Source: Torpedo marmorata (Eukaryota). From it: 64,000 nt of DNA. Where the stretch lies: NCBI GenBank assembly GCA_977017645.1, contig OZ360221.1:85498001-85562000 (forward strand). Reading direction: 5' to 3'. Position numbers and translations under genes: made by a program. A model generated the notes under the pieces. It was not told where the DNA came from, made no database searches, and worked only from the letters and a program-made list of their open reading frames with translations. How positions within the stretch are numbered: the stretch's first letter is position 1; each line of letters begins with the position of its first letter. Positions 23,889 to 52,353 of this stretch are shown one piece after another.

Positions 23889-24000
23889 TTGAATCAAAAT
23901 CCATCTTGGTAATTGAAGGAATCCCAGTCTGGTTTAAGACATTCCTTTTGTAAAGCTAATTAAAAGCTAGTGTGTGTGTAAAAAAAACAAAACAGCAACA

Positions 24001-24494
24001 ATGGATGTAGAAAATTTTTTGACATCACCTGAACCTGATACTTTAAAAAAGGCAAAACATGAACAGTTAGTGGCTATAGCCAAAGAGTTGGACATTGTTT
24101 CTGTAAAACCATCAATGAAAAAGGCAGAGATTGGGAGAAAAATTGTCAAATATTATATAAAAGAAAAAAAGTTTGAGGAGAGTGTGTTAGAGCAGTTTCC
24201 CAAGGGTAAACCTTCTGAAAACATACAGTTAGAACGAAAGAAATTGGAATTTCAACAAAAGAGATTAGACTTGGAGGTAGCCAGGGAACAAAAGAAATTA
24301 GACAGGGAATTGGAACAAAAGAGATTAGACTTGGAGGTAGCCAGGAAACAAAAGAAATTAGGGAATTGGAACAAAAGAAATTAGACAGGGAATTGGAACA
24401 AAAGAAATTAGACACGGAATTGGAACAAAAGAGATTAGACTTAGAGAAAGAGGAGAACATTAGGCAATATGAGCTGGAAAAGATTAAGTTGGTA
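24001..24494 (+). pseudogene. Gmr1-like gag N-terminus (frameshifted, with coiled-coil repeats)
   Basis: ORF MDVENFLTSPEPDTLKKAKHEQLVAIAKEL... follows the PBS. Tandem GGAACAAAAGA(A/G)ATTAGAC repeats at ~24240-24445. Interrupted by the BEL LTR. Confidence 0.75.
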
Positions 24495-25120
24495 TGTAAG
24501 AGCCGTAGGCTCATTAACTTACCGTTGTTGCGGCGCTCCGATGTCTCGTCGGCCCGTTCGGAGTGCTCGCGTTGTCTGTGGGCCGTTCTCGGCCCGTTCT
24601 GTGCTCTGCGCATGCGCTGGAGTGCCGACGGGCGCATGCGCAGTTTGGAGTGACGTCATTGTGTGCTGTGCAGTCTGGGAGATGTAGTGTGCGCGGTGGT
24701 GGGTGCGCAGTGTTAGGGGAGCGACGGAGCATGCGCGAATCGGGTAGAATAGGAAAGGAATAGAATAAAGGAAAGATGGAGATGTTAGGAGGGTGAGTGA
24801 GGTCTCCACATCTTTATTGACCGTTTTTACAGCGTTTTATAGCTTTTTACATCGTTTTATATCGTTTTATAGCTTTTTACATCGTTCTACAGTGTTTCAT
24901 ATCGTTTTGGAATTGTTTAAAGAATCATTTAAAGGAACTCATCATACATCGTTTACAAGAACTGTTTATATTAAAGTCATTGAAGATTACTGCAAGTCAC
25001 TTGTGTAAATAAAGGTTTTGAACATATTGGACTTTGTTAGTAAATTAATTAAAACGCGTCAAAGACAAGTATCTCACTTAGCCTCCAGGTGACTAATGTT
25101 GGATCGAAGTCACCATAATA
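24495..25120 (+). repeat. BEL 5' LTR
   Basis: 626 bp starting TGTAAG. About ten substitutions and one 2-bp indel relative to the 3' LTR, counted by eye. Confidence 0.92.
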
Positions 25121-25566
25121 TAGTCAATAAAGGGCTGGCTGTTTGGAACAGAAGTTTGAAAGAAAGAAGATAGAAAAATCTCTCTGTGCTTTGGACTGAT
25201 AATATGGTGGCCATCTTGGAGATGCCTCGAGTTGGGGGCAGTTTGTAATCCACTTCCATCTGCCATGAATAACAGCCAGAGAGGGATTTAAAGCTTCAAA
25301 TCTTATAGTAAAGTGTCCTATAAATACGTTGGAGAAACGAATTTTGGAAAATCAGTGATATTAGTGACGGATGTTGTGGTTGAAACTCGTTTGTGGATTG
25401 CAGCATATTACAGTCATTTGAAGTGGTTGGCATAAGTCTGTGGACTCCTTCTGTGTATCTTTAGCAAGTAAGAACACAGATTGGAATTGCTGCCGCTGGT
25501 CCATTGGGGACTGTTGTTTGGCTAGTGTTGTGTATGCTTGAAGGAAAGAGGAACAAGACGAGTAAA

Positions 25567-27981
25567 ATGGCCGCAGCAGCCACTGATACAGCAGCTACTG
25601 ATATATCAGCAGCTGACGCAGCAACCGCTAATGTTGCTGTTGAGGACCAACGTATTGAAGACATGAAGGTTTCGGATATTAAAGAAGAATTGAAGCGACT
25701 GAAAAAGGACATAAGTGGAAATAAAAAGGTTCTTATCGAAAGATTGAAGCTGGCAAAGGATGAAGAGGCAGCTTCATTAGTTGAACAAGAAGATAACTTG
25801 GAAATGGCTGAAATTGTGTCAACAAATGATGAAGAAATTAAAGTGGTTGAAGATGCAAAGGATATACAATTCGAATTGGATAAAGAGGTAAGTATGAAGA
25901 CAACATATGAACTGCAGGACGAAATACAAGCAAGTGACAGTGTCTCAAATGCTGAAAGCAGGAGAAGCAAAAGAAGTTCTGGTTCGAGCTCCAGAGTTTC
26001 TCGTACTTCAAGTTCTGCATCGTCACGTACAAAGGTTGATATTAAATTGGCCGCTCTTCTTGCACAACAAAAAACGCTTAAGGATAAGTATATTTTGGAA
26101 GAAGAGGAGGAGCAGCTAAGACAAAAGGAGGAGCAGCTAAAACAAAAGGAGGAGCAGGTAAAGGAGCAGCTAAGACAAAAAGAGGAGCAGCTAAAGGAGC
26201 AGCTAAGACAAGAGGAGGAGCAGCTAAGACAAAATGAGAAACAGCTAAAGGAGCAGCTAAGACAAAATGAGAAGCAGCTAATGGAGCAGCTAAGACAAGA
26301 GAAGGAGCAGCTAAGGAAGAGAAAAGAACAGCAGGAGCTGGAAGCAAACATTGCTATTGCCAAGGCAGAAAAGAAAGCAATAGAAGGCTCAATGGTATCT
26401 GGTGCTAGCAGTAAATTATCTAAATTGTTTGATAATAAAAGGTCATATTTAAAAAAGGAGTCACAGGAAAAGAAACCAACCAAAAGGATAGATATTTTAG
26501 AATCAAGGATACAAAACTTACATATACAAGGACAAACCTTTCAAGAGCATATTGGTATCGAGTCACATGTACCAATGATAACATCTGAAAGCAAAGCTGC
26601 GGCTTGGGTTCGGTCGAACGAAGCAACTTCTTTGTTATTTGAGTCAAGCATCAGAAATATGGAAGAAACTACACCAGTGAGGTTTCCAGATACATTGCAT
26701 GCAACAAGAGACGGTGAACAGAGCAATGTATTGTCATCCAAGGAAAGACAAAATGAAATTGCTGCATCATTGTTTCAGTTACAGTCTCTCTCTTCTTTAC
26801 CCAAGAAAGAGATACAAACTTTTGATGGTGATCCACTTCAATATCAATCATTTATGAGATCTTTCAAACGCAATATTGAAGATAAATGCCAAGATCGTGA
26901 TGAATGTCTTTATTATTTGGAAATGTTCACAAAGGGACATCCAAAAGAACTGGTAAAAAGTTGTAAACAAATGTCTTCAGGAAGAGGATTAGACAAAGCT
27001 AAGGCTTTATTGGAACAATATTTTGGCAACAAGCATCGAATTGCTTTAGCTTATATGGATAAAGCTCTTAAATGGACATCAATAAAACAAAATGATGTAA
27101 AGGCTCTGCAAGAGTTTACTCTGTTTTTAAGAGGATGTTGTAATGCTATGGAAGAAATCGATAGTATTCGTGAGCTTGATGTGCATAGTAATATGCGAAT
27201 CATTTTAGAAAAATTACCTTACAAGTTATGGGATAGATGGAGAGATTTGGCTTGTGATTTACAAGTAGATTACGGTCGAAAAATTACCTTAAAGGATTTG
27301 GTAAATTTTCTTGAACGACGGGTGTACGTTGAAACAGATCCACTATATGGAAATACCAGAGATAATTCAATGGGCAAAGAAGTAAGAAAGTCTAATTCAC
27401 AGTCTAGTCCGAAAGTGAAAAGGAGTACTTTTGCTACTAATGTGCAAGTTATAAGTAAAGAAAATGACAAAGTAAATAAGGAAAAGGAAAGTTTGCCTAA
27501 TGAAAAGAGTTGTTTGTTCTGTAAAGGTGGACATGCTTTGGAAATGTGTTTACGATTGGAAAAGAAGGAACATAAGGAAAAGATCGCTTTCTTAAAGGAA
27601 AATGGAATATGTTTTAGCTGTCTGTGTAAAGGGCACATCAGTAAAAACTGCGAGAAGCGAATTAATTGTAACATAAGCAATTTGAAACATCCTAGAATTT
27701 TGCATATCCATAACAGAAACAAGGAATTGGAAAAGGAGCAAACAGAAACAAAGGAAACAACAGAAAATAATGTTATAACCTCGGTTCAGACAAGTGGTCT
27801 TACTGGGGCCGGGGTGAATAACTGCAAACTTTCAATAGTGCCTGTACAAGTCAAGGCCAAGAAAGGGGATGCAATAGTAAAAACATATGCATTTCTAGAC
27901 CCAGGCAGCACTGCATCTTTTTGCACGGAAGGACTAATGAATAAACTTAATATTCAAGGAAAAGATCAAGAATTATGTTAA
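25567..27981 (+). CDS. BEL/Pao Gag-protease: SAP-like motif, coiled coil, DUF1759-type capsid, Zn knuckles, aspartic protease N-half
   Basis: Open 825-codon frame with likely ATG at 25567 (AAAATGG). Motifs: IQTFDGDPLQYQSFMRSF, CLFCKGGHALEMC, CFSCLCKGHISKNC, YAFLDPGSTASF. Confidence 0.88.
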   Translation: MAAAATDTAATDISAADAATANVAVEDQRIEDMKVSDIKEELKRLKKDISGNKKVLIERLKLAKDEEAASLVEQEDNLEMAEIVSTNDEEIKVVEDAKDIQFELDKEVSMKTTYELQDEIQASDSVSNAESRRSKRSSGSSSRVSRTSSSASSRTKVDIKLAALLAQQKTLKDKYILEEEEEQLRQKEEQLKQKEEQVKEQLRQKEEQLKEQLRQEEEQLRQNEKQLKEQLRQNEKQLMEQLRQEKEQLRKRKEQQELEANIAIAKAEKKAIEGSMVSGASSKLSKLFDNKRSYLKKESQEKKPTKRIDILESRIQNLHIQGQTFQEHIGIESHVPMITSESKAAAWVRSNEATSLLFESSIRNMEETTPVRFPDTLHATRDGEQSNVLSSKERQNEIAASLFQLQSLSSLPKKEIQTFDGDPLQYQSFMRSFKRNIEDKCQDRDECLYYLEMFTKGHPKELVKSCKQMSSGRGLDKAKALLEQYFGNKHRIALAYMDKALKWTSIKQNDVKALQEFTLFLRGCCNAMEEIDSIRELDVHSNMRIILEKLPYKLWDRWRDLACDLQVDYGRKITLKDLVNFLERRVYVETDPLYGNTRDNSMGKEVRKSNSQSSPKVKRSTFATNVQVISKENDKVNKEKESLPNEKSCLFCKGGHALEMCLRLEKKEHKEKIAFLKENGICFSCLCKGHISKNCEKRINCNISNLKHPRILHIHNRNKELEKEQTETKETTENNVITSVQTSGLTGAGVNNCKLSIVPVQVKAKKGDAIVKTYAFLDPGSTASFCTEGLMNKLNIQGKDQELC
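26105..26325 (+). repeat. In-frame tandem repeat (GAGCAGCTAAGACAAAAGGAG-type; EQLRQKE) in BEL gag
   Basis: Repeated 12/21-nt modules encode EQLK/EQLRQ coiled coil. Confidence 0.9.
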
Positions 27982-28505
27982 AAACCATGGGACAAGAAAA
28001 GGTTGTTGAAACTAACATTGTTTCAGGCTTAGAGGTTGCTGGATTGGATGACAAAAAATTTTGTGATCTTCCAAGTGTATATACTCAGAAGACTATGCCT
28101 GTGAATGAAGGAAATATTCCTCATCAAAGGGATATCCATCACTTAGCTTATCTGTGGAAGGTTTATTTACCTGAAATTAATTCTGAGATAGAAATGCTGA
28201 TTGGTTCAGATGTGCCAAAGGTTTTGGTACCAAAAGAAGTAATAGAGAGTAAAAGGAATGGACCTTACGCTATTAGAACCATGCTTGGTTGGGCAATCAA
28301 TGGACCAATGGAAAGAAATAATGATATTGCTCAGGAACAGTTAGCGATAAATATTAATAGAATTTCGGTTGAGAAAGTTGAAGAGTTAAGCGAAGAGCAA
28401 AAAACCGTGAATAAGAAAATCACTTATGAAGAAAAGAAAACAGATCAATGTGAAAATAAATCAATGGTATTTAAAACAACATTGAAGGAATTAATTTCAT
28501 CATAA
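27975..28505 (+). pseudogene. BEL protease C-terminal half (frameshifted continuation)
   Basis: LKTMGQ...VSGLEV...IEMLIGSDVP...GPYAIRTMLGWAINGP. Overlaps the end of the gag ORF in another frame. Confidence 0.85.
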
Positions 28506-29468
28506 ATGGATGAAAGTGAAGTATTAGAAGATGTTGCAAATAATACTATTGATCATTCATGTGTAATTGAATCAAATACAGGAATAAAACAAGTGACTGA
28601 AAACAAATCTGAATGTAGATTTTGTAGTTCAGAGATTACAACAGACAAAGCTAATGAAGAATTATTGCAATGTGATGTAAAACTGGAGAACACAGAAAAT
28701 TGTGCTGATGGAATAAAGAATAATGTGAATGATAATTTAATGCAATTGAATTCAGAGAACAAAATGTTGAAAGGGGAATTGGAAATATTAGATAATCAAG
28801 AAAACAGTAAACAGAAAGATTTAATTGTAAGTAAAACTCGCAAAGTCAGAAAGCAGAAGAAAAGAATAACTGCTGAAGAAATGAATACAGTTATTGAGGA
28901 AAGAGATTCAGCATTATCAAAATGTAAAAGGTTAGAGGAAGAGATTAATGTTTTGAAAGAGAACAAGTTATTGGTTAATAACTCAAAACAGTTGACTTTA
29001 AAAACCAATCAAGAATGTAAATTGAATGTTCAACAATTAACAATGCAGAAAGAATGTGATATTGCATTGCAGAAATGTAACAAACAAGATGAAGAAATTA
29101 AAAAATTTCAAGTTTGTCGCAACAGGATTGACAATGGAAATATCAATGTATCACATGATATTTTGACTTCAGATCAAATTATTAATTTCTCAGAAAGAAC
29201 TGAGACTGAATTGAAAGTTGCAAATTTGGATTTAGAATTGCAGGAAAGAGCAATAGAAACCAGAGTGGTTAAACAGACTTGTTTAAAATCGAAAGGATCA
29301 GATAAATATTCAAATTCTAATTCTAAGAGTTTAAATTCTTCACATGAAAAGTGGAATACTGAAGAAAGGAATAAAGTGAAACGACATGCTGAAGAAGTGC
29401 CTTGTGTTAAATTGAAAAGAAAAACTGTATCTATTTTGTCTGAGGAAGATTTGAGGTTTACTGGTTGA
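28506..29468 (+). CDS. mipol1: MIPOL1-like coiled-coil ORF captured within the BEL element (internally deleted, intronless)
   Basis: RITAEEMNTVIEERDSALSKCKRLEEE closely matches remembered human MIPOL1 RITAEEMSALIEERDAALSKCKRLEQE. Weaker collinear matches lie upstream and downstream. 320 open codons. Confidence 0.75.
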   Translation: MDESEVLEDVANNTIDHSCVIESNTGIKQVTENKSECRFCSSEITTDKANEELLQCDVKLENTENCADGIKNNVNDNLMQLNSENKMLKGELEILDNQENSKQKDLIVSKTRKVRKQKKRITAEEMNTVIEERDSALSKCKRLEEEINVLKENKLLVNNSKQLTLKTNQECKLNVQQLTMQKECDIALQKCNKQDEEIKKFQVCRNRIDNGNINVSHDILTSDQIINFSERTETELKVANLDLELQERAIETRVVKQTCLKSKGSDKYSNSNSKSLNSSHEKWNTEERNKVKRHAEEVPCVKLKRKTVSILSEEDLRFTG

Positions 29469-29499: not shown

Positions 29500-29690
29500 C
29501 TTTAAAGAGACATTGTGATTATCATGGATAATTCAACTTCAAGAAACTCCTGGTTACTTGGAAAAATTATTGAGACTTTTCAAGACAAAGAGGACTTGTG
29601 CGTCAAGTGTGAATTAAAACTAAGACTGGTTTTTCGAAACAGACCTATTAACAAGGTCTGCCTTTTGTTGGAGACAGAGGAACTTTGATA
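29500..29690 (+). pseudogene. Remnant of BEL integrase C-terminal domain (DUF5641-type)
   Basis: Reading across frameshifts gives DIVIIMDNSTSRNSWLLGKIIETF.DK.GLVRQV.IKTKTG...RPINKVCLLLE. Confidence 0.75.
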
Positions 29691-29891
29691 AATATAAACT
29701 GACTTTATTTGTTGTTATATATTTCACAGGTTACAGACTTTTGTTGATTCAGAGTTATGGTAAACTCTGGGTTTATGAAGAAGGAAGAAAGAAGATTTGT
29801 ATTGTTTGAATGTTATGGTTATTGTTATTTATAATTTATAGTGTAATTATTATTCAAGACATTACGTCTAATTATAATAATTAGGGGCCGG

Positions 29892-30515
29892 TGTAAGTGC
29901 CGTAGGCTCGTTAACTTACCGTTGTTGCGGCGCTCCGATGTCTCGTCGGCCCGTTCGGAGCGCTCGCATTGTCTGTGGGCCGTTCTCGGCCCATTCTGTG
30001 CTCTGCGCATGCGCTGGAGTGCCGACGGGCGCATGCGCAGTTTGGAGTGACGTCATTGTGCGCGGTGCAGTCTGGGAGATGTAGTGTGCGCGGTGGTGGG
30101 TACGCAGTGTTAGGGGAGCGACGGAGCATGCGCAAATCGGGTAGAATAGGAAAGGAATAGAATAAAGGAAAGATGGAGATGTTAGGAGGGTGAGTGAGGT
30201 CTCCACATCTTTATTGACCGTTTTTACAGCGTTTTATAGCTTTTTACATCGTTTTATATCGTTTTATAGCTTTTTACATCGTTCTAGTGTTTCATATCGT
30301 TTTGGAATTGTTTAAAGAATCATTTAAAGGAACTCATCATACATCGTTTACAAGAACTGTTTATATTAAAGTCATTGAAGATTACTGCAAGTCACTTGTG
30401 TAAATAAAGGTTTTGAACATATTGGACTTTGTTAGTAAATTAATTAAAACGCGTCAAAGACAAGTATCTCACTTAGCCTCCAGGTGACTAATGTTGGATC
30501 GAAGTCACCGTAATA
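29892..30515 (+). repeat. BEL 3' LTR
   Basis: 624-bp direct repeat of 24495-25120, preceded by a purine tract. Confidence 0.92.
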
Positions 30516-31701
30516 TAGATGAGAAGAGACAAGAACAGCACAAAGATCAAATTCGTCATCCTGTTGAGGGGTTTTTGGCTAGTAGAGAAGTTGAGGAGGC
30601 AGAAATAGATAAGTATTTCCAGCATTTTGAGAAGGTGGCTGTGAAATTAAAATGGCCACAAGACCAATGGTTTCTTATGTTACAAAGTGTAATAAAAGGA
30701 AAAGCTCAGCAAGCTTATTCTACTCTTACCACGGAGCAAGCTGCTGATTATGAAACGGTGAAAAAGGCTATACTCCAGGCTTATGAGTTAGTTTCAGAGG
30801 CTTATAGACAGAAGTTTAGAAATTTAAAAAGATCAGCAACCCAATCTTACACAGAGTTTGCCTATGAAAAGGTTGTGTATTTTGACCAGTGGTACACATC
30901 TAAGGCGGTAAACAATGATTACTATCAATTGAGAGAATTGATAATAATCGAGGAGATAAAAAGGTGTGTTCCTGAGGATATTAAGGCATACTTAGATGAA
31001 AAGGAGGTGAAAACTTGGCAAAATTCAGCTAAGTTAGCAGATGAATATGCTTTAACCCACAAGCCTAAGTGGACGTCAGGCAGAATTTTCCAAAAGGTCA
31101 ATGTGGATAATCAGAAGCAAGTGGAAAGTAAATTTGGAAGTGGTGTTAAGGAAAGGGATGAAGGAAAGTGGAAAAGGGAAAACCCTTTGGGTCCCATTTG
31201 CCACTACTGTAAGAAGGCTGGTCATATGCTAGCAAGCTGTCCAGTGTTGACTAAGAAGAGAGAAAAGGATGCAACACCTAATGTTGTATTCAGAGTGAGA
31301 AGAGGCATAACACCCAGGAAGGAAATAAATTTACTGACAAAGTTAGGGATGTATTTAAACCTTTTGTGACTGATGGTTTTGTTTCAGTTAAGGCAGGATC
31401 AAAACAAGTTCCAGTGAAAATCTTGCGAGATACTGGAGCTGCTCAGTCATTTGTGTTAGATAGTATCTTGGAATTTTGTGAAGCTACTGACATGAATTTA
31501 ATTAAAGGAATTGGGGGTGATGTTGAGTCCATTCCTTTGCACAAAATAGTGTTGGACTCAGACTTGGTGGAAGGACCTGTTATAATAGGAGTGAGATCAG
31601 AGTTGCCAGTAGAAGGAGTCTCACTGTTGCTAGGCAATGACTTGGCCAAGGGTAAAGTAGTTCCTGCAATGCGAATGACAACTAAGCCAGTCATTGATTA
31701 G
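30516..31701 (+). pseudogene. Gmr1-like gag C-terminal part (SCAN-like capsid, CCHC) and protease
   Basis: YFQHFEKVA..LKWP..QW, YELVSEAYRQKFR, CHYCKKAGHMLASC, then KILRDTGAAQSF and LLLGNDL. Confidence 0.85.
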
Positions 31702-32020
31702 TCAGAGAAAGACTCTGATATTTATCCGGCATGTGCCATAACCAGGGCCATGTCTAAGAAAAATGTCACTGTAGTGGAAAATAAATTGGTGAAAGAAAAG
31801 GTCAGTGATAATCAAGAACACCTGGAAAGGTTGAGCAATCTCCTGTGTTACACCCATCCACTGATAAGACACCTAAAGGCACAGATTTGTCACTATCCCG
31901 ACAGGAGCTAATAGCAAGGCGAAAGGACGATCCTGATCTTGCTGAGGTGAGGGATAAGGTTCTCTCTGAAGAGGAGATTAAAAAGATGCCAGTGGGTTAT
32001 TATGAAAAAGATGGGGTGTT
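31476..32020 (+). repeat. Left copy of a ~545-bp direct duplication flanking an L1
   Basis: TTGTGAAGCTACTGACATG...GATGGGGTGTT is repeated at 34229-34783. Confidence 0.92.
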
Positions 32021-34228
32021 TTTAAAAAATATATATTTTATTTAAAATTTTAAATCACAAAATACATAAGATAAAATTATAAAATTATCAAAATACTTGT
32101 GATATATTTTCACACCCCCTCCCACCCTCACCTCCCTAACCCTCCCCTCCCTACTAATCTAATAAAATAAAATTTAAAAAAAGAAAAAGATAGAAAAAAG
32201 ATAGAATAAGGAGAATGTCAATCTAAAAATACATCTATAAACTAATTCTATTATGCAGGTTAGGTACACCAGTAGATCCGATGTCCAGAGATTTTCAAAT
32301 TCTTAAACCAACAACTATCATATATGGGCTCCAAATTTTTAAAAAGAAATGATACTTATTACGTAAATTGTAAGTAACTTTTTCAAGTGGTATACATGAA
32401 CGAAGTTCTGCATGCCATCTTTCTAATCCTAAATCTACATCAGATTTCCAAGTAATAGCAATACATTTCTTTGAAACAGCTAAAGCAATTCGCAAAAATT
32501 CTATTTGATACATATTTAATTTCATCTTAATACTAAATTTTTTAATATCTCTAAATAAAAATAACATAGGGTCCATTGTGAATGTAATCTTAAATACTTT
32601 ATCTAAAACATTTTTAACTTTCAACCAAAAATCATAAACTTTTGAACAAAACCATGTAAAGTGTACGAAAGAACCTTCCTCTTTATTACATCTAAAACAT
32701 AAACCTGATAATGTCGGATTAAATTTCTTTAATTTTTTAGGTGTTAAATATAATTGATGAAAAAAATTGTATTGTACTAATCTATATCTAACATTAATAA
32801 TCTTCGTCATACTTAATTTGCATAATTCTTTCCAATGATTTTCATCTATTGTTACATTCAAATCTAATTCCCACTTTAATCTTGATTTATGAATTCCTAC
32901 TTTAGGAACTTTTCTCTGAAACAATCTATACATTTGAGAAATAAATTTATTTACATCTCCTTTAGTAACTAATAATTCTAATTCATTCTGTCTTGGTAAA
33001 ATCAAGCTATAGCCTAATTTCTCAACCAAAAATGCTCTAATTTGATAATAAGCAAAAAGTGTATTATCCAATATATTGAATTTATCTTTCATTCTTTGAA
33101 AAGTAATAAATTTCCCTGCTTCAAATTAGTCATTTATATTCTTAATACCTTTTTGAAACCAAATTTTAAATAGTTGATTATTGATAGTAAATGGAATAAG
33201 TTGATTTTGATATAAAGGCATCTTAGGAGAAATCGTTCCTTTTCCTCCTATTTCTTTATCCGTCTTACTCCAAAATTCTAACAGATTTTTAAGAATAGGA
33301 GAATTTTTTCCTTTTTGTTGATATTAATTTAGAATCCCATTTATAAATAACTTCTTCTTTAGAATCTTCTCCTATATTATTTAATTCTATTCTAATCCAA
33401 GCAGAAGATTTAGTTAAATTAAAAAATTCATTAATAAATTTTAATTGAGCTGCTTTAGAATAATTTTGAAAATTAGGAAGTTGTAAACCACCCATTTCAT
33501 AATTCCAAGTTAATTTTTCTATACGTACCCTTGCCAACTTTCCTTTCCATAAAAACTTCCTTATAATTGAGTTTAAATCTTTTTTTAAAATTTGAGGAAT
33601 TTCATAAGGAATTGATTGAAAAAGATATTGTATTCTTGGAAATACATTCATTTTAATACAATTTACTCTTCCCATTAAAGTTATAGGTAAATCTTTCCAA
33701 TTTTCCAAATCTTTTTTTATCTTCATAAACAATGGTAGATAATTTAATTTATATAAATTAGCCAATTTTGTATCAATCTTTATTCCCAAATATTTAATTC
33801 CCTCTTTTGCCCATTTAAATTGTGTAATTTCTTTACATTTACTATAATCCCCTTGTGATAATACCATAATTTCACTTTTATCAGAATTAATTTTATATCC
33901 AGATATTTCCCCATACTCTCAATAAAGCAGACAGCTGTACTAAAGATGTAGTAGGTTTTATCATATATATCAATACATCATCTGCAAATAAACTAATTTT
34001 ATGTTCTTCCGTTCCAACTTTAATACCTACAATTTTAACATCTTTTCTAACTAATTCTGCCAAAGGTTCTATTGCTAAAGTAAACAATGCTGGTGACAAA
34101 GGACATCCTTGTCTAGTAGATCTAATCAGGGGAAATCTTGAAGAAATTTGTCCATTTGTAATTACTTGAGCAGATGGTTCTTTATATATAGTTTTAATCT
34201 AATTAATAAATGTAGTCCCGAAACCAAA
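32021..34228 (-). mobile_element. L1 family A, 5'-truncated within RT, degraded
   Basis: QGCPLSP, LFADD, IKYLG and CCHC motifs on the minus strand. The A-rich tail is at the left end. Confidence 0.92.
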
Positions 34229-34783
34229 TTGTGAAGCTACTGACATGAATTTAATTAAAGGAAATGGGGGTGATGTTGAGTCCATTCCTTTGCACAAAAT
34301 AGTGTTGGACTCAGACTTGGTGGAAGGACCTGTTATAATAGGAGTGAGATCAGAGTTGCCAGTAGAAGGAGTCTCACTGTTGCTAGGCAATGACTTGGCC
34401 AAGGGTAAAGTAGTTCCTGCAGTGCGAATGACCACTAAGCTAGTCATTGATTAGTCAGAGAAAGACTCTGATATTTATCTGGCATGTGCCATAACCAGGG
34501 CCATGTCTAAGAAAAATGTCACTGTAGAGAAGGCAGTGGAAAATAAATTGGTGAAAGAAAAGGTCAGTGATAATCAAGAACACCTGGAAAAGGTTGAGCA
34601 ATCTCCTGTGTTCCACCCATCCACTGATAAGACACCTAAAGGCACAGATTTGTCACTATCCCGACAGGAGCTAATAGCAAGGCAAAAGGACGATCCTGAT
34701 CTTGCTGAGGTGAGGGATAAGGTTCTCTCTGAAGAGGAGATTAAAAAGGTGCCAGTGGGTTATTATGAAAAAGATGGGGTGTT
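34229..34783 (+). repeat. Right copy of the duplication
   Basis: Matches 31476-32020 apart from a 9-bp indel, a 1-bp indel and a few substitutions. Confidence 0.92.
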
Positions 34784-35680
34784 GATGAGAAAGTGGAGAA
34801 CATGTGATGTTCCTGCCAATGAAGAATGGGCAGTAGTGCAGCAGGTTGTGATCCCTAAAGTATTTAGGGATGCAATAATAACTTTGGCTCATAGCACACC
34901 CTTAGGTGGTCACCTTGGGGTGAAGAAAACTATAAGGAAGATAACGAAACAATTTTATTGGCCCAGTTTGAGAAGGGAGGTTGTAAGCTTTTGCCGGGCC
35001 TGTCACACTTGTCAGGTGGTGGGTAAACCTAATCAGGGTCCCCCGGTGGCAACCTTGCAACCTATCCCTGCTTTCGGTGAGCCTTTCTCGAGAGTAATTG
35101 TGGACTGTGTTGGCCCATTGCCCAAAACCAAAGTGGGAATGAGTATTTGTTAACAATTATGTGTGCAGCCACCAGATTTCCAGAGGCCATTCCTCTGAGA
35201 AACATTAAAGCAAAGGCAATTGTAAAGGCTATGGTAAAGTTTTTCAACTTGGTAGGTTTGCCAAGGGAAATTCAATCAGATCAGGGCAGTAATTTCATGT
35301 CAGGCGTTTTCCAACAAGTGGTTGATGGACTGGGAATTAAACAGATTATATCCTCTATGTACCATCCAGAAAGTCAAGGGGCCTTGGAGAGGTTCCAGTC
35401 GACTTTGAAAAACATGATTAGAACCTATTGTTGTGAGAAGGAAAAGGATTGGGATGAGGGCGTTCATTTGTTGTTATTTGCAGCGAGGGAGTCTGTCCAA
35501 GAATCACTTGGTTTTAGTCCATTGGAGTTAGTTTTCAGACATGAGGTGAGAGGTCCTTTAAGATTATTAAAAGAACAGTGGATTAATCGTGATGTGCATT
35601 TAAATCTGTTAGATTATGTTTCCAAATTTAAGGATCGGGTGCATAGGGCTTGTGAGATGGCAAAGGAGAATTTGAAGAAT
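34503..35680 (+). pseudogene. Gmr1-like integrase (HHCC plus DDE core), frameshifted
   Basis: AHSTPLGGHLG...CRACHTC, VIVDCVGPLP, IQSDQGSNF and YHPESQGALER. Confidence 0.88.
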
Positions 35681-35765
35681 TTGGAGAATTTACTTGATGT
35701 TTCCAGGGTCCTGTGGTTCAGGAGTGCAGTTTGCACCTGTGGTTCCATCATCGTGGTCGGTAAAA

Positions 35766-36659
35766 TGTTATGGACCATGACTGACCATTTGGACTGCGGA
35801 CGGTCAGCAGGAAGGATGAAGTCTTTTGGAGTATACACTGGGGCCAGGTACTGAAAGAGTTAACTTCCCCAGCTACTTGGTGTACCCAGACAAGATACAT
35901 TGTTGCACTCTTGGTGTACCCAGACAGAGAGAGACCAGAGAGAGAGAGACAGGCTAGACAAGATACATTTGTTTCACTTCTGCAAAAAGCAGGGGCAGAT
36001 CTCTGCAAAACACCCAGTTGTGAGTTGCAAAGGCTACCGAACACAGCCAGATCCAGGCTTGTGCAGTCAGAGAAAATCTGGAAGAATAGCACATGGCCTC
36101 CTGTCTCAGAGAAATTCTGAGAAAAAGCAACTTCTGTGGAGAACAGGCGTGAGATCAGCGAGACTAGCTGTGAGATTCAAGCATACGCCTAAATCAGTGG
36201 TATACTGATCTGGAACTTGCAATCCTTATGAACCTACAAGAAGGGGACGTCATCAGAGAAGAAAACAAGTGTTTGTAAGCATAAACAGTCATTGTCTCTC
36301 TCCAACGTTCATTCAGAAGTACTTCTACCAGACACAGAGAAAAAGTTGAAGCCTGAACTTAGAGAGTGGATTTTGTCGACTGTATTATCCTTTTTTTTGA
36401 CTGACTTGTTTTTTATGACTGACCTGGGGTTTTTGGGGAAGGTTTTTCCATTTTTACATAAGGGTTGGGCACAGACTGTAATGGTCTGGGCTTTACACAC
36501 ACACACATACACCTTTTAGATAAGAATAGAGTTTATAGACGTTTATAGTGGGGTTAATTGTTGTGAAATTATATGTTTACTTGTGTTTAATAAATAATAA
36601 TTTCAATTTTACCCCTTTTGCATTGCGTCTTCTGTCGTTGCTGGTTTGAATTCATAACA
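35766..36659 (+). mobile_element. LTR of the Gmr1-related family, probably solo
   Basis: TGTTATGGACC...CATAACA, flanked by AAAA on both sides. No PPT upstream and no PBS downstream. Confidence 0.8.
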
Positions 36660-44994: not shown

Positions 44995-47900
44995 TCAAAT
45001 CCTAAAACCAACAACTTTCATATATGGGCTCCAAATTTTTAAGAAAAAATGATATTTGTTACGTAAATTATAAGTAATTTTTTCAAGTGGTATACACGAA
45101 CGAAGTTCTGCATGCCATCTTTCTAATCCTAAATCTAAATCAGATTTCCAAGTAATAGCAATGCATTTCTTTGAAACAGTTAAAGCAATTCGCAAAAATT
45201 CTATTTGATACATATTTAATTTCATCTTAATACTAAATTTTCTAATATCTCCAAACAAAAATATCATAGGATCCATTGGAAATGTAGTCTTAAATACTTT
45301 ATCTAAAAATTTTTTAACTTTCAACCAAAAATCATAAACTTTTGGACAAAACCATGTAGAATGTACAAAAGACCCTTCCTCTTTATTACATCTAAAATAT
45401 AAACCTGATAATGTCGGATTAAATATCTTTAGTTTTTTAGGTGTTAAATATAATTGATGAAAAAAATTGTATTGTACTAATCTATATCTAACATTAACAA
45501 TCTTCGTCATACTTAATTTACATAATTCTTTCCAATGATTTTCATCTATTGTTACATTCAAATCTAATTCCCATTTTAATCTTGATTTATGAATTCCTAC
45601 TTTAGGCATTTTCCTCTGAAACAATTTATACATTTGAGAAATAAATTTATTGACATCTCCTTTAGTAACTAATAATTCTAATTCATTCTGTCTTGGTAAA
45701 ATCAAAGCATAACCTAATTTCTCAATCAGAAAAGCTCTAATTTGATAGTAAGCAAAAAGTGTATTATCTAATATATTAAATTTATCTTCATTCTTTGAAA
45801 AGTAATAAATTTTCCAGCTTCAAAACAATCATTAATCTTCTTAATTCCTTTTTGAAACCAAATTTTAAATAATTGATTGTTAATAGTAAATGGAATAAGT
45901 CCATTTTGATATAAAGGCATCCTTGAAGAAATCAATCCTTTTCCTCTTATTTCCTTATCTGTCTTATTCCATATTTCTAACAAATGTTTAAAAATAGGCG
46001 AATTTTTCTTTCTTGTTGATATTAATTTAGAATCCCATTTATAAATAACTTCTTCTTTGGAATCTTCTCCTATATTATTTAATTCTATTTTAATCCAAGC
46101 AGAAGATTTAGTTGAATCAAAAAATTCATTAACAAATTTTAGTTGAGCTGCTTTATAATAATTTTGGAAATTAGGAAGTTGTAAACCACCCATTTCATAA
46201 TTCCAAGTGAATTTTTCCATACCTACTCTTGCTAACTTTCCTTTCCATAAAAATTTTCTAATAATTGAATTTAAATCTTTAAAACAATTTTGAGGAATTT
46301 CATAAGGAATTGATTGAAAAAGATATTGAATTCTTGGAAAAATATTCATTTTAATACAATTTACTCTTCCCATTAAAGTTATAGGTAAATCTTTCCAATT
46401 TTCTAAATCTTTCTTTATTTTCACAAATAATGGTAAATAATTTAATTTGTATAAATTAGCCAATTTTGTGTCAACCCTTATTCCCAAATATTTAATTCCT
46501 TCCTTTGCCCATTTAAATTGTGTAATTTCTTTACATCTACTATAATCCCCTTGTGATAATGCCATAATTTCACTTTTATCAGAATTAATTTTATATCCAG
46601 ATATTTCCCCATATTCTCTCAATAACACAGACAATTGTACTAAGGATGTAGTAGATTTTGTCATGTATATCAATACATCATCTGCAAATAAACTAATTTT
46701 ATGTTCTTCCATTCCAACTTTAATGCCAACTATTTTAGGATCTTTTCTAACTAATTCTGGCAAAGGTTCTATTGCGAAAATAAATAATGCTGGTGATAAA
46801 GGACATCCTTGTCTAGTAGATCGAGTCAAAGGAAATTTTGAAGAAATTTGTCCATTTGTAACTACTTTAGCAGATGGTTCTTTATATATAGTTTTAATCC
46901 AATTAATAAATGTATTTCCAAAACCAAATTTCTCCAATACCTTAAATAAAAAAATCCACTCTAATCTATCAAAAGCCTTTTCAGCGTCTAAAGTTAAAAC
47001 TAATGGTAAATCTTCCTTCTTTTTATATAAATTAATTAAACTAATCAATCTAGCTATATTATCTTTTGAATATCTATTTTTAATAAAACTAGCTTGATCT
47101 ACATGAATTAAATCTGGTAAATAATTAGCTATTCTATTTGCTAAAATTTTTGCCATTATCTTATTATCTACATTTAATAATGAAATAGGTCTATAAGATT
47201 CAGTTTTCAATACATCTCTATCTTTCTTTGGTATAACTGTAATTATTGCATTTAAGAAAGTATCTGGTAATGAATGAGTTTCCGTAATTTGATTCAATAC
47301 ATCCATATATGGAGGTATTAATAAATCTTTAAACTCTTTGTAAAATTCTGATGGAAATCCATCTTCACCTGGAGATTTACCACTCTTTAGAGAAGTAAGA
47401 ACTTCATTAACTTCCCTCATTGAGAAAGGTAAATCTAAAGATTCTCTACTTTGAATATTCAATTTAGGTAATATAATTTTAGATAAAAACCTAGTAATTT
47501 TAGAATCATCTTGATCAATCTGAGATTTATATAAATTCAAATAATAATCTTTAAAAGAATCATTTATTTCTCGAGGTTTATAAGTTATTTCTCTAGAGTT
47601 CTTTTTCCTTATAGCATTTATAGTTCTAGAAGTTTGATCTTTTTTTAATTGCCAAGCCAAAACTTTATGGGCTCTTTCCCCTAACTCATAGTATCTTTGT
47701 TTAGTTCTTTCAATTAATTTTTCCATTTTATATATTTGTAATAAATTGTAATGTAATTTCTTCCCAATTAAATGGTTCCTTTTTTGAATTGATCTGTTTT
47801 TTTGTAAATCTTTTTCCAAACATTCAATCTCCTTCTCTAGTTTTTCTACTTCCCTAAAATAATCTTTCTTAATTTTTGCTGAATAACTTATTATTTGACC

Positions 47901-48782
47901 TCTTAAATAAGCTTTTAAAGCTTCCCAAATAATAAATTTATTATCAGTAGAATTAGAATTTATTTGTAAAAATTCCTGAATTTCCCTTCTCATATAATCA
48001 CAAAAATCTTTTCTTTTTAATAAAGAAGAATTGAATCTCCAGCTATATACAGTTTTTTCTTTTTCCGGAATTATACAAGATATTAATAAAGGTGAATGAT
48101 CAGAAATTATTCTCGCTTTATAAGATGCTTGCGTTATTCTATCTTGAACCTGTGAAGACAATAAAAATAAATCTATCCTAGAATATGAATCATGTCTGAA
48201 AGAATAAAAAGAATAATCTTTTTCTCTTGGATTCAATTTCCTCCAAATATCTATTAAATTTAAATCTTTCATCAAAGTAAGAACTCTTTTAGCAATTTTA
48301 GTTTTAGCAAGTGATCTTGAAGTTTTATCCATTATTGGATCTAGACAACAGTTGAAATCTCTCCCAATTAAAATATTCTCATTAGCTTCTGACAAATGTA
48401 AAAAAGAATCTTGAATAAACTGTTCGTCATCTGCATTTGGCACATACAAGTTCATAAGTGTCCAGAATTCTGAATAAATCTGGCAATGTATCAAAACATA
48501 TCTACCTGCCACATCTATAACTACCGATTGTATCTTAAAAGGTAACTTTTTATTAATTAATATAGCTACCCCTCTTGCTTTAGAATTAAATGAAGAAGCC
48601 ACCACTTGACCAACCCATTCTCTTTTTAACTTTTGATGTTCCGAATCTATCAAGTGCGTCTCCTGTAAAAAAGCTATATCTACATTCAACTTTTTAATAT
48701 ATGCTAAAGTTCTCTTTCTTTTAATCGGATTATTAAGCCCATTTATATTAATACTTACTACATTTATTTTCTTACTATCCAT
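44995..48782 (-). pseudogene. L1 ORF2p (APE endonuclease, RT, CCHC) with one frameshift near 45785
   Basis: 1004-aa ORF (SININGLN, FLQETH, SDH, FADD) followed by a 236-aa continuation. Confidence 0.92.
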
Positions 48783-49063
48783 CGTAACTAAATTTTATCA
48801 AATCTCTTTCGATCAAATCTACCAACTTTTTCCTCCAAAATTGTAAACTATTTGGCATCTCCTTAAAGAAAATGAAGAAAAAGAAAAAAGAAAAGAAAAA
48901 AGAAAACCCCAATGAATAAAATACTGGTACAATTACCCCAGTATTACCCCCCTCCATTGCTCGAGAAGTGGCTCTCGCCACTAAAGTGGTGTATGGCTAG
49001 GAAGAAGAGACAAAAAGTCCACCTCCCCCCAACAGATTTTACAAAACATTATTAATCATAACT

Positions 49064-50216
49064 TCATTTAACTGTTCCAATGTCCACATTATCTTGATCT
49101 TCTTCAATCTGGACTTGAATCCTCTCCTCTTTTCGTGAAGAACTTGTCGAAGAAATTTGTAGTGGTGAACTCTCTTGAACTTGTTGATAAACCATCTCAT
49201 CTTGATTTTTGATCAAATAAGGAAGAGTTTGTGCATGCCTTAGCGCTTGTTGGGGATCCATAAACATAGTGAAACGATTTCCTTCACCTTGAATTCTCAA
49301 AGCCGCAGGATATTTAAAGGAAAACTTATATCCTTTTTGCCAAAGAAGTGCTTTTGTTGGATTAAATTCTTTCCGACTTTTAACTACCGTAGGGCTCAAA
49401 TCTGGATAAAAGAGCACTCTATTTCCATTAATCATCAGTGGAGATCTATCCACTCTTGCATTTTGAATGGCTGCTCTTAATATTTTTTTCCTATCTTGAT
49501 ACCTGAGACATTTAATCAAAACTGGACGTGGTCTTTGGTCCATTTGTTGATTTCGCCTCCCAATTCTGTGTGCTCTTTCCAACTCCACTGGCTTATACAA
49601 AGTCAGAACCTGCAGAAGCCAATCTTGAAAAAATTCAGTTATATCTTGTTTTTCAAAATTTTCAGGAAGTCCTAATATTTTAATATTATTTCTCCGGCTT
49701 TGATTTTCCAATTGATCCAATTTTTGTAGAAGTTGATTTCTTTGTTGTTCCCAACCTGTAAATGTATCTTCTATTTTATCAACTCTATCCTTATGATCCA
49801 CCAAATCATCATAATTATTTTTAACATCTTCCTCAATTTTTTGAACTTTAAGTTTCACTGTACTCACAGTATTTTTCAAACTTCTCATATCTTGTTTCAC
49901 CTCTTTAATATCTTCTTCCATTGAATTAAATCTAAATTCCATATGTGATTCTAACTTTGCAATGGCCTGAAGTATTTGTTGTTGATTTGTTTTTATTGAC
50001 ATGAATTCCTTAGCTGGGTCCTCAGGGTACTCCTCAAATTCTTCCATCTCTTGTTCCAGGATCTGTTGCATTTCCTTATCCTTTCCTTCTGATTCTGACG
50101 ATGTTTCCTGCTCCACAGCGTATAGCAACATGCGCATGCGCGGCTGCTCCAATATCATTTTTGTAGTTTTTCTTTGAGCGCCGGCGCCATCTTCCCCAGC
50201 TCCCTGGGAGAGCAGC
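49064..50216 (-). CDS. L1 ORF1p (coiled coil plus transposase_22-type RRM/CTD), N-terminally truncated
   Basis: LENQSRRNNIKILGLPE, ERAHRIG, RPRPVLIK, FYPDLS and YPAAL. Confidence 0.9.
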
Positions 50217-52353
50217 AAATTTATCATCATTTACATTTCTTTTCAAAAAAAGTCCAAAACTCCGAATATATTTGGCAATGTATCATTACATATCTCCCTA
50301 CAGGATCCGTCACAACGTTTTGAATTTTAATTGGGAGATTCTTTTTTATTAGAATTGCCACACCTCTTGCCTCTCGAATTAAATGAAGAAGCTGCTACAT
50401 ATCCCATCCAATCCCTTTTTAATTTCAAATGTTCTTTTTCAGTTAAGTGTGTCTCTTGTAAAAAAGCCACATCTATTCCCAATTTTTAAATATATGTTAA
50501 TACACTCTTCCTCTTCACTGGTCCATTTATCCCATTGATATTAAAATTCATAAATTTCACTATGTTACTCATTTTGAATAACCATATTCATTCATTCATT
50601 CTTTCTTTTTAGTGTTACCTCCACCACCCCAGTCTGCTAAATCTCTCCCTTTAACTTCATTATCCAATCGCCATTGCGTCGTCACATGTCTCCTCCGGCA
50701 ATCCACATAAAGAAAAAAGAATAAGTATAGAATTAAAAAATACATTTTCCAACTTTCTCAATAATATAAAAACAAAATAAATTTTCCCCATCTGGCGCTG
50801 TTTGAATATACAGCGCTACCCCCCTCCATTTTACGGGTCGCGACCAGGGTCGCAAAAACACATATGATCCAGCAGGAGTTAGAACCTCACCCTCTTCCCC
50901 AATCCCCCTGGTACTTTTACCATTTAAAAAAAAAAAAAATCAATAACCAATTACTAGATTAATCAAGTTCACAAGCTGGTGCAAATGATATAATCCTTAG
51001 AAAACATAATTATAGCAATCCAGGTTTATAATTTTTCTTCTTCATTCCCTCTGGATTGTTGCAAGATTTTTAATAAACTCCTCTGCCTGTACATAACTTG
51101 AAAAGAATTTATTTTGATCGTCAGGCAAAAAAGTTTTCAAAGTCGCCGGGTGACGCAGTACAAATCTGTAACCTTTCTCCCAGAGGATCTACTTGGCTGG
51201 GTTAAATTCTCTTCTTCTCTTCATTAAATCAGCACTTATATCAGGATAAAATAGAATTCAAGCACCTTCATATTCAAGAGGGCCACAATGTATTCTTGCT
51301 CGATCCATCACCACTTTCAGAATTTTCTGTCTGTCTTAATAACGAAGAAATTTGATTAAAACAGAACGTGGGTTCTGATCTTGAAGTGGTTTCCCTCTAA
51401 GATTGGGTGTTCAAAATTCTCTTGTCCCAAGACTTCAGGTATCCACTTTTTGAAAAAGGCAATTGGATCTTGCTCTTCTATTCCTTCTTTAAGACCCACG
51501 ATTTTTATATTATTCCTTCTACTAAAGTTCTCCAATATATCTACTTTCTGTTGAAGCTTCTGGTTTTCCATTGTTAAAACTGTAGTCGTATCTTCCACTT
51601 TTGTCATTCTGTCATCAAAATGTTCCATCTCATCCTGTACCTTCTTCATTTGTCCATCCATTTTATCCAGTTTTATCTTTATTTCTTTTATCTCATTTAC
51701 CACTTTATTAATCCCTTTAATTTCAGCCTTCATATTTTTCAACTTTTAATATGTTGAATTGCTTGTCTTTTTGCTTTTTACTTTCACAATTTCTTCCATT
51801 ACCTCCTCTTGTTGTTGCTGTTCTTCCATTTCCACCTCCTCTTCCTTGCTGTCAGAGCTGGGAAACCTCGACTCCTCTTCTCCTGACGTTGTAGACTCAG
51901 CTGTGAGTCCCGACGTTTCGCGCGTGCGCGTTGCACTTCCGGGTTCTTCCTCAGCGCCATCTTTCCGATGTCAGAGGTGCGCACCGCCAGCAGAGGTCCC
52001 TGCCAGTGATCCACTTACCTCGGTATCGGTTTGTACGCTAGCTCCCTGCTGCTGAGGCCTTCTACCCGTTCAAGTCTTCTCCTTACTTTGGGCTCGAGGT
52101 AAGGCTGCGGCTGTTTTTTCTTTTTTCGGAGGCATTTGAAGTATTTTTCTAGTATTCAGATGTTTTTTAAAAAGGTTTAAATTTTCTAAAACTTTGTTTA
52201 TTTGATACTTTTTTTGAAATTCCCAGGAGGGTCAGGTTCCTACGTCCTAACCCTACGGCATTACGTGACGTCCCCCATTTTCTGTTCTTATTTTTTTCTC
52301 CACATACACTGATCATTTAGACTAGAGCTTTTTTTTCCATAGGTACTGGAGAA

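Follow-up and report, generated by a model that had tools for sequence, protein, structure and literature searches.

A non-autonomous BEL/Pao retrotransposon of Torpedo marmorata carrying BRCA1, MIPOL1 and Elongin A fragments behind its protease

The element and its three host-derived fragments

Within a 64,000-nucleotide stretch of Torpedo marmorata DNA (contig OZ360221.1, positions 85,498,001 to 85,562,000; from here on, the window), we analyzed a BEL/Pao long terminal repeat (LTR) retrotransposon in which fragments of three host genes, BRCA1, MIPOL1 and Elongin A, are located between the protease and a remnant of the integrase region. We regard this architecture, i.e., three host fragments in a non-autonomous BEL element, as practically certain. 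The first-pass annotation of the window had noted a stop-free coiled-coil open reading frame (ORF) of 320 aa at 28506–29468 and had read it as a MIPOL1-like host gene captured in place of reverse transcriptase (RT), RNase H and integrase; the frame itself is present. The window sits on contig C5 of the 6.22-Gb assembly searched, which looks haploid because pieces of the host MIPOL1 and BRCA1 genes have a single genome match each.

All features of the element lie on the plus strand. The 5′ LTR (24495–25120), whose TG...TA ends were set from sister copies and the autonomous element L073, and the 3′ LTR (29892–30515), set from sister copies, are identical at 617 of 627 aligned bases, in agreement with the initial estimate of ~98%. 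The sequence behind the 5′ LTR is common to the window family and L073. The gag region (25567–27981) contains a SAP domain, glutamate/glutamine-rich repeats and DUF1759 (SAP and DUF1759 from Pfam), is 97% identical to that of L073 and continues into the protease; it carries a frameshift near 27.96 kb that most sister copies lack. The aspartic protease and its linker (27840–28400) are 91–92% identical to L073 and a second autonomous element, L074, and the aspartate of the catalytic motif (27886–27909) is kept in 38 of 38 loci. Past the stop of the cargo, a C-terminal stub of the integrase region (29507–29688) can be aligned with the DUF5641 end of the L073 ORF, starting at 7687 of L073. A purine-rich tract (29880–29891), present in 30 of 30 copies, has the position of a polypurine tract and presumably serves as one. 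No env-like frame was seen between the LTRs. Based on the paired LTRs with the purine tract, the DUF1759-containing gag and an identity of 90–97% to L073, which has Peptidase_A17 and DUF5641, the element belongs to BEL/Pao. The match to L073 runs from 24533 to 28400 and resumes at 29507; the ~3.2 kb of L073 with RT, RNase H and the integrase core is unmatched in the window element and replaced by ~1.1 kb of other sequence. Thus, the predicted loss of RT, RNase H and most of the integrase holds, and the window element is a non-autonomous BEL/Pao derivative.

The ~1.1 kb is accounted for by fragments that lie in frame between the protease and the integrase stub, and the window ORF matches the ray BRCA1, MIPOL1 and Elongin A proteins. 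The BRCA1-derived fragment (28401–28816) crosses the splice junction 28509|28510 at the start of the BRCA1 large exon and has a private stop at 28503–28505. Over residues 196–350 of ray BRCA1, the window ORF is 48% identical at the amino acid level. A sister copy from an older, more host-like subfamily (see below) matches skate/ray BRCA1 with a phmmer E of 6e-43, and a search with the BRCA1 part gave just 3 matches among 1.84 billion proteins, two of which are named BRCA1. The captured piece corresponds to residues ~196–392 of 1943 and includes neither RING nor BRCT. The acceptor of the host BRCA1 large exon (L076) falls inside the cargo, and DNA identity to this exon is 79% for the window and 90–93% for old copies. 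We also noticed that L076 lacks 9 nt that are present in the cargo near the exon start; because the ray BRCA1 protein P0294 has residues there, the cargo appears to preserve an older state of the host BRCA1 gene.

MIPOL1 segment 1 (28817–29122), from the C-terminal coiled coil and predicted to be helical, terminates at an exon 3′ end, and MIPOL1 segment 2 (29123–29266), from an upstream exon, begins at an exon 5′ end and has 81 nt deleted inside. The likeness to MIPOL1 proposed initially is specific: 35 of 35 matches carry the MIPOL1 Pfam pair (best E 2.5e-13), and identity is 65% over 102 aa to residues 450–551 of ray MIPOL1 and 48% over 99 aa to a rodent protein. Generic coiled-coil similarity was rejected. 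The host MIPOL1 exons are nearest to those of rays, with Narcine closest among named records (89% over one exon). The Elongin A-derived fragment (29267 to ~29480) covers the last 66 residues of the ORF and matches residues 453–530 of ray Elongin A (E 1e-8). The family-wide stop at 29466–29468 lies just ahead of the BC box. In old copies, Pfam Elongin_A is found with E 1e-14 to 1e-16 in all five frames covering the domain, PDB 8oev_M is matched with E 6e-40, and ray Elongin A ranks first of 452 matches. The host Elongin A piece is 100% identical to Narcine. A second Elongin A-like match (74%; G000:C25:175318134-175318247), in addition to the main gene on C41, is a paralogue or a retrocopy. In keeping with these assignments, the weaker matches that had been read as collinear with MIPOL1 turned out to lie in the BRCA1 part or in the wrong half of MIPOL1: the N-terminal third of the ORF is BRCA1, a stretch near the end of the MIPOL1 part stems from the N-terminal half of MIPOL1 rather than from its C-terminus, and the last 66 residues are Elongin A. 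With the window ORF, we found no match in Pfam and, in PDB, a weak vimentin coil only. A single-sequence AlphaFold model of the ORF gave a helix with pLDDT 75–93 over residues ~121–200 and an overall pTM of 0.24, and only helices are credible in this model. A homodimer prediction for residues 100–262 scored 0.30 against a mark of 0.32, had no folded controls and is not used as evidence here.

Because host acceptors fall inside the cargo for BRCA1 (L076), MIPOL1 (L061, inside old cargo) and Elongin A (L075, likewise), all three captured sources were spliced; the comparison of exon junctions with the host gene suggested for MIPOL1 therefore comes out in favor of capture. The cargo is intronless host sequence in place of part of an internal ORF, as in LTR-mediated retrocopies, and the capture ends that can be compared with host DNA, namely the 3′ ends of BRCA1, MIPOL1 and Elongin A, are mid-exon. 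About 6 nt are shared at the protease/BRCA1 joint, where the BRCA1 side was taken from another species' contig, and ~4 nt at the BRCA1/MIPOL1 joint. In the old subfamily, a filler of ~30 nt (L038:2131-2160) separates the MIPOL1 and Elongin A parts; it belongs to neither gene, has a best match of 11 nt to two autonomous elements and is possibly a fourth captured fragment. An L1-type retrocopy was rejected on the grounds that the cargo lacks a poly(A) and is flanked by LTRs, and an assembly artefact on the grounds that there are thousands of dispersed copies, each with its own flanks.

One reading frame, its copies and the constraint on it

To define the reading frame of the family, we used the 30 closest copies (97–98% identical) as a sister set, together with six copies from the list of joint matches on C1 that were chosen regardless of likeness and that all have two LTRs and the same build. 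The stop at 28503–28505 is present in only 3 of the 30 sister copies. Eight of the 30 are open over all 888 codons fetched, and 24 keep the full 320-codon cargo frame. Among the six unselected copies, two are open end to end (1293 and 1285 aa) and a third is open over 1123 aa. The codon position of the closing stop, just ahead of the Elongin BC box, is identical in 36 of 36 copies; the box is deleted in this young subfamily, and the stop is 423 nt from the 3′ LTR, compared with 196 nt in the autonomous element. Because both the stop at 28503–28505 and the frameshift near 27.96 kb are copy-specific, we rejected the idea of a stand-alone 320-aa gene: the 320-aa ORF is an accident of the window copy, and in the family the cargo frame continues that of Gag-protease and forms the C-terminal end of a single predicted polyprotein.

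A 29-base pattern over the young BRCA1/MIPOL1 joint has 23,720 matches in the genome and the corresponding joint of the old subfamily 183, whereas reversed-pattern controls have 0. The joint is thus far from single-copy, and the same switch points recur in all these matches, as expected for secondary retroposition. If all young copies are full length, as were six of six sampled, the young family comprises ~140 Mb or 2.3% of the assembly. In four of the six unselected copies, the LTR pairs are 99.4–99.7% identical and in two 93–96%; because of this range, the activity of the family is both long-running and recent. Five of five readable copies have a 5-bp target-site duplication (four exact and one with a mismatch), the survey covering eight fetched copies, of which three lacked the LTR start in the fetched stretch. 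We also observed tandem arrays, with five joint matches at a spacing of 4,964 bp at C1:1498235-1518119, and a cluster of near-identical copies at C43:31.0-31.13 Mb.

The old subfamily, for which we fetched 30 of 98 scored loci from a genome search with MIPOL1, has ~80% DNA identity to the window and the same gag-protease-cargo order, is host-like and still holds the Elongin BC box. Some old copies (L035, L039, L040, L044, L047, L049, L050 and others) differ by in-frame indels of +285, −51, −12, −141 and +111 nt, and some retain more BEL sequence behind the protease. Because these indels are shared among copies, several structural variants appear to have been mobile in turn. A likely helper is L073, which has a 2046-aa ORF with RT, RNase H, Peptidase_A17 (E 6e-47), integrase and DUF5641 and LTRs that are 99.7% alike; its LTR is 98.1% identical to that of the young copy L078, and the old subfamily is 74–79% identical to L073. 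Synonymous distances between young and old copies are 0.52 for gag, 0.63 for protease and 0.28–0.38 for the cargo, which would be explained most simply by recombination that transferred the cargo to a younger backbone. Among four sequence runs, X17 and X19 are rich in element contigs, some bridging chimeric joints, although contigs are not proof of transcription; X10 and X12 gave only 2 and 3 contigs, which are host-gene-like and do not prove that those species lack the element. Because contigs from X17, a different ray species, bridge old-type joints, the captures predate the split from that species.

Based on codon models, the cargo is constrained to a similar degree as gag. Using a set of 12 copies (chosen for open frames or near-identical LTRs) and a set of 32 copies, and leaving out the four tandem near-duplicates L008, L020, L027 and L028, we obtained an omega for the cargo of 0.40 and 0.44, respectively; gag gave 0.44–0.50 and the MIPOL1 part 0.49. 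As controls, shifted frames gave 1.4 and 1.7, and the tail past the stop gave 0.84–1.67. In the old subfamily, omega was 0.81 and 1.1, with 1.1 for its Elongin A part. Among young copies, the ratio of nonsynonymous to synonymous variants (N/S) was 105/23 with 6 stops for private variants and 28/27 with 1 stop for shared ones (p 5e-5); with CpG sites removed, the values were 91/17 and 28/19, respectively (p 0.0016). Private variants thus look neutral, and shared ones do not. Similarly, 13 of 13 indels present in at least 4 of the 30 young-versus-old alignments keep the frame, compared with 2 of 16 private indels; one 81-nt gap among the recurrent indels was split by the aligner, and some of the 3-nt ones may be inherited host variants. 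Altogether, it is highly probable that the cargo is under purifying selection at the protein level. The initial suggestion of a recently mobile family possibly under selection is therefore borne out by the number of joints, by LTR pairs of up to 99.7% identity and by a cargo omega that is not near 1.

Origin and role of the cargo

Although the first-pass annotation had described the MIPOL1 matches as collinear, residues 450–551 precede residues 295–376 in the cargo with a joint at 29122|29123, and a collinear MIPOL1 piece was rejected. Both sides of this joint coincide with splice sites. The end of segment 1 coincides with the start of the next host exon (L062), and an annotated ray isoform that skips L062 breaks where segment 1 ends. 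The start of segment 2 coincides with the end of the preceding host exon (L064); ray isoforms differ at this point by one serine, i.e., by two acceptors three bases apart, of which the cargo uses the upstream one. An independent host mRNA contig (X10) placed the second segment first and then, going back 588 bases, the first, with 191 letters between them, and in X17 loose ends run into the host neighbors on both sides of the permuted joint. The permuted joint is present in 29 of 30 old copies, and its eight flanking bases are unchanged in 22. An upstream MIPOL1 exon and the two last exons have one genome match each and are without copies in the cargo; because the host exons outside the cargo match once each, there is no present tandem duplication of host MIPOL1 exons. 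Dong et al. (2016; PMC4897178) define a copy derived from circular RNA (circRNA) by a downstream donor joined to an upstream acceptor, and the cargo has such a reversed exon-exon junction at annotated splice sites and lacks exons from outside the circle. In a literature search for 'circMIPOL1', we found no paper. We conclude that the MIPOL1 piece very probably derives from a back-spliced circRNA.

The same permutation could have arisen without a circle, by a template jump back on linear mRNA, by trans-splicing or through a tandem exon duplication that has since been lost, and three bases are indeed common to both sides of the joint. Microhomology of that size drives template switches in LTR elements (PMC5131818), and other routes can yield non-colinear joints (PMC4897178). 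However, the MIPOL1 cargo contains the shared triplet 12 times in its 588 nt, and even so the two sides of the joint lie on splice sites, whereas the other capture joints checked are mid-exon; moreover, the captured MIPOL1 sequence is confined to exons that the circle would hold, and the host exon located between the segments is present once in the genome. Based on these observations, we consider a non-circular origin unlikely.

As to how the element arose, we favor, with moderate confidence, capture of three host RNAs by template switching and retention of the resulting tail for the benefit of the element. According to this proposal, repeated template switching during reverse transcription would have replaced the RT-RNase H-integrase region with fragments of co-packaged host RNAs, namely spliced BRCA1, circular MIPOL1 copied across its back-splice joint and spliced Elongin A. 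The transcript driven by the LTR would encode Gag, protease and cargo and be packaged in the resulting particles, as expected from the anatomy of the element and established LTR biology, and RT and integrase would be borrowed from the autonomous BEL family. The cargo would be translated as an extension of the Gag-protease polyprotein and kept because it is useful to the element. The initial view that a non-autonomous BEL element captured spliced host RNA is supported; the single mRNA is replaced by three genes, with MIPOL1 in back-spliced order and the whole fused to Gag-protease. For the use of the tail, we tentatively suggest, at somewhat less than even confidence, that the MIPOL1 coiled coil takes the place of RT and that its self-association aids particle assembly or protease activation. 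By analogy, a foreign zipper placed behind the HIV-1 protease raises Gag cleavage (PMC3291649). Reading through the cargo would also carry the ribosome close to the 3′ LTR. The most far-reaching version, for which our confidence is lower still, is that a functional polyprotein module was assembled from scraps of host RNA, with a circRNA translated across its back-splice, took over from RT in its structural partnership with the protease, was improved by selection and moved to a younger helper backbone, and helped a defective element to reach ~2% of the genome. If true, this would demonstrate directly that circRNAs are packaged and copied by LTR particles and that such copies can become selected protein.

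Several observations weigh against these proposals. The upstream acceptor and downstream donor at the MIPOL1 joint were deduced from the exons next to them, from isoforms of rays and from mRNA contigs obtained in other species, and a plain template switch would also be compatible with the 3-base identity at the joint. Constraint on the BRCA1 part is weak (omega 0.63, p 0.017). Fixed changes between the subfamilies are not clearly constrained (N/S 79/31 with 0 stops, compared with 105/23 for private variants, p 0.065), and the cargo was therefore drifting or being remodelled before the present constraint. The omega between subfamilies by pairwise NG86 was 0.57–0.84; this comparison used one reference copy and so repeats that copy's own changes, and we relied instead on the N/S tests and the codon model. 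Codon models can be biased by the drift of the cargo (28401–29468) toward A (44.5% A and 9.7% C), in which C>A, G>A and C>T dominate relative to the host exon, and omega can be biased by recombination, which occurs among the copies. Unlike sister copies, the window copy has no 5-bp target-site duplication (24490–24494 and 30516–30520). Finally, the HIV-1 analogy cuts both ways, as the same zipper lowered particle yield (PMC3291649).

The main rival to a structural role is that the cargo is a spacer, kept open because a long untranslated stretch behind the protease would trigger nonsense-mediated decay or break cis-packaging, with amino acids that are merely harmless. That all 13 shared indels keep the frame, that the stop is further from the 3′ LTR than in the autonomous element, that changes between the subfamilies look nearly neutral and that most of the recognizable motifs of the old cargo have been trimmed off would all fit a spacer. 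However, the young subfamily has a deficit of missense changes and not of stops alone, as strong as the deficit in gag, and we regard a spacer as a less likely explanation than a structural role. Viral proteins of the Vif type recruit the Elongin BC-cullin ligase through a BC box. A counter-defense function of this kind, in which the tail recruits host machinery such as this ligase or poisons host MIPOL1/BRCA1 complexes and so blunts silencing, could be entertained for the old subfamily, in which the BC-box region and a portion of the Elongin A domain are in frame. Yet its Elongin A part evolves with an omega of 1.1, the BRCA1 piece is without RING and BRCT, and the subfamily with 23,720 copies stops ahead of the BC box and has lost it in all 36 copies. 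The intact and selected BC box of a Vif-like protein is thus found in neither subfamily; because the BC box is lost, this function is unlikely for the successful young subfamily, and counter-defense as a whole appears improbable. Least probable is a benefit to the host, with the chimera being a domesticated gene or the copies tuning BRCA1, MIPOL1 and Elongin A via small RNAs. Old copies, at 90–93% identity to the host BRCA1 exon, may be close enough for cross-targeting by small RNAs; on the other hand, private mutations are neutral and include stops and frameshifts, the signal of selection comes from variants that dispersed copies have in common, the pattern expected if selection acts on replication of the element itself, and no single conserved locus was seen, although no genome-wide search for one was made.

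The BEL element interrupts gag in a Gypsy-type element that has a SCAN domain (E 3.5e-11; window 23971–24494 and 30516–35854). When the flanks of the insertion are joined, the Gypsy gag frame is open and no more than two bases are repeated. In this Gypsy-type element, the integrase directly follows the protease, an order that we take to be Gmr1-like, and the element is further interrupted by a LINE at ~32.0–34.2 kb with a 299-nt duplication. Elsewhere in the window, a GC-rich stretch at 53272–56124 (plus strand) has an open 951-aa Gypsy-type pol with protease, RT, RNase H and integrase, and a LINE at 45771–50230 (minus strand) has a 1008-aa endonuclease-RT frame and an upstream 388-aa frame.

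Relation to known systems

The first-pass annotation knew of no BEL family with such cargo, and we found no description of this ray family in the literature searched; most subscription journals, Repbase/Dfam and preprint supplements were outside the search, and an unannotated library entry may exist. Singly, multi-gene capture by LTR elements and circRNA-derived pseudogenes have been described. The combination of a back-spliced segment, in-frame fusion to Gag-protease, constraint at the protein level and very high copy number is unusual, and we did not find it in print. The autonomous elements L073 and L074 share LTR, gag, protease and integrase tail with the young family at 90–97% identity and likewise have a single gag-pol frame, but hold ~3.2 kb of RT, RNase H and integrase where the young family has ~1.1 kb of host-derived sequence. 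Acutely transforming retroviruses are replication-defective, carry a spliced host v-onc sequence fused to gag and are moved by a helper. The manner of oncoretroviral capture to which the ray cargo had been compared is nevertheless a loose likeness: in the ray family, no env-like frame was seen, amplification was in the germ line, the three fragments are unrelated, and a cellular phenotype is not in evidence.

MIPOL1 is listed as the top retrocopy parent in cartilaginous fishes in a preprint (bioRxiv 10.64898/2026.06.26.734816), which ties retrocopy numbers to non-LTR machinery and functional filtering and whose main text does not name BRCA1, ELOA or Narcine. If electric rays supply those copies, hitch-hiking in a BEL family would be a simpler cause of the MIPOL1 excess, and the 'MIPOL1 retrocopies' of cartilaginous fishes may be the cargo of one mobile family and not a sign of host selection. 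SUDS3, SDF2L1, SLU7 and ZNF276, listed beside MIPOL1 as top parents in the same preprint, may be other LTR cargos. Mapping of BRCA1, MIPOL1 and Elongin A reads in these rays would be confounded by the element, and the subfamilies with and without the BC box offer a natural before-and-after comparison.

LTR-mediated retrocopies are modeled to arise from host RNAs that are co-packaged and enter the element through template switching (Tan et al. 2016, PMC5131818). The ray family has in common with them the replacement of an internal ORF by partial spliced mRNA, secondary retroposition and chimeras of several genes, with one mouse locus reported to contain four genes and one mosquito case being flanked by BEL. 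Microsimilarity at joints is described for those retrocopies, and the short stretches shared at two joints of the ray family may be of this kind or due to chance. Those retrocopies are low-copy and mostly young or decayed loci, in contrast to the 23,720 copies of the ray family with cargo selected within a polyprotein, and the words 'circular' and 'purifying' are absent from the main text of that paper. The circRFWD2 pseudogenes of the mouse resemble the MIPOL1 piece in that a non-colinear joint is fixed in DNA, without poly(A), in 33 copies with LTR-enriched flanks (Dong et al. 2016, PMC4897178). They differ in that the mechanism was left open and the copies were treated as pseudogenes, whereas the permuted ray piece sits in the coding frame of a defined LTR element, with a helper in view, and is constrained as protein. 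Dong et al. call the copying of circRNAs into genomes mysterious (PMC4897178); a back-spliced piece inside an LTR element, with a likely helper alongside, would provide a concrete route. Closest in build is maize Bs1, an LTR element with three unlinked host gene fragments in one hybrid ORF and switch points that are identical from copy to copy (Elrouby and Bureau 2001, 2010, as cited in PMC5131818). Bs1 is present in one to five copies and has one fragment out of frame, whereas the three ray fragments all keep their native frame, include one with permuted exons and belong to a family with a copy number four orders of magnitude higher. In the ray family, a retrotransposon has shuffled exons on a scale well beyond known cases, and selection acting on the element appears to preserve the product.

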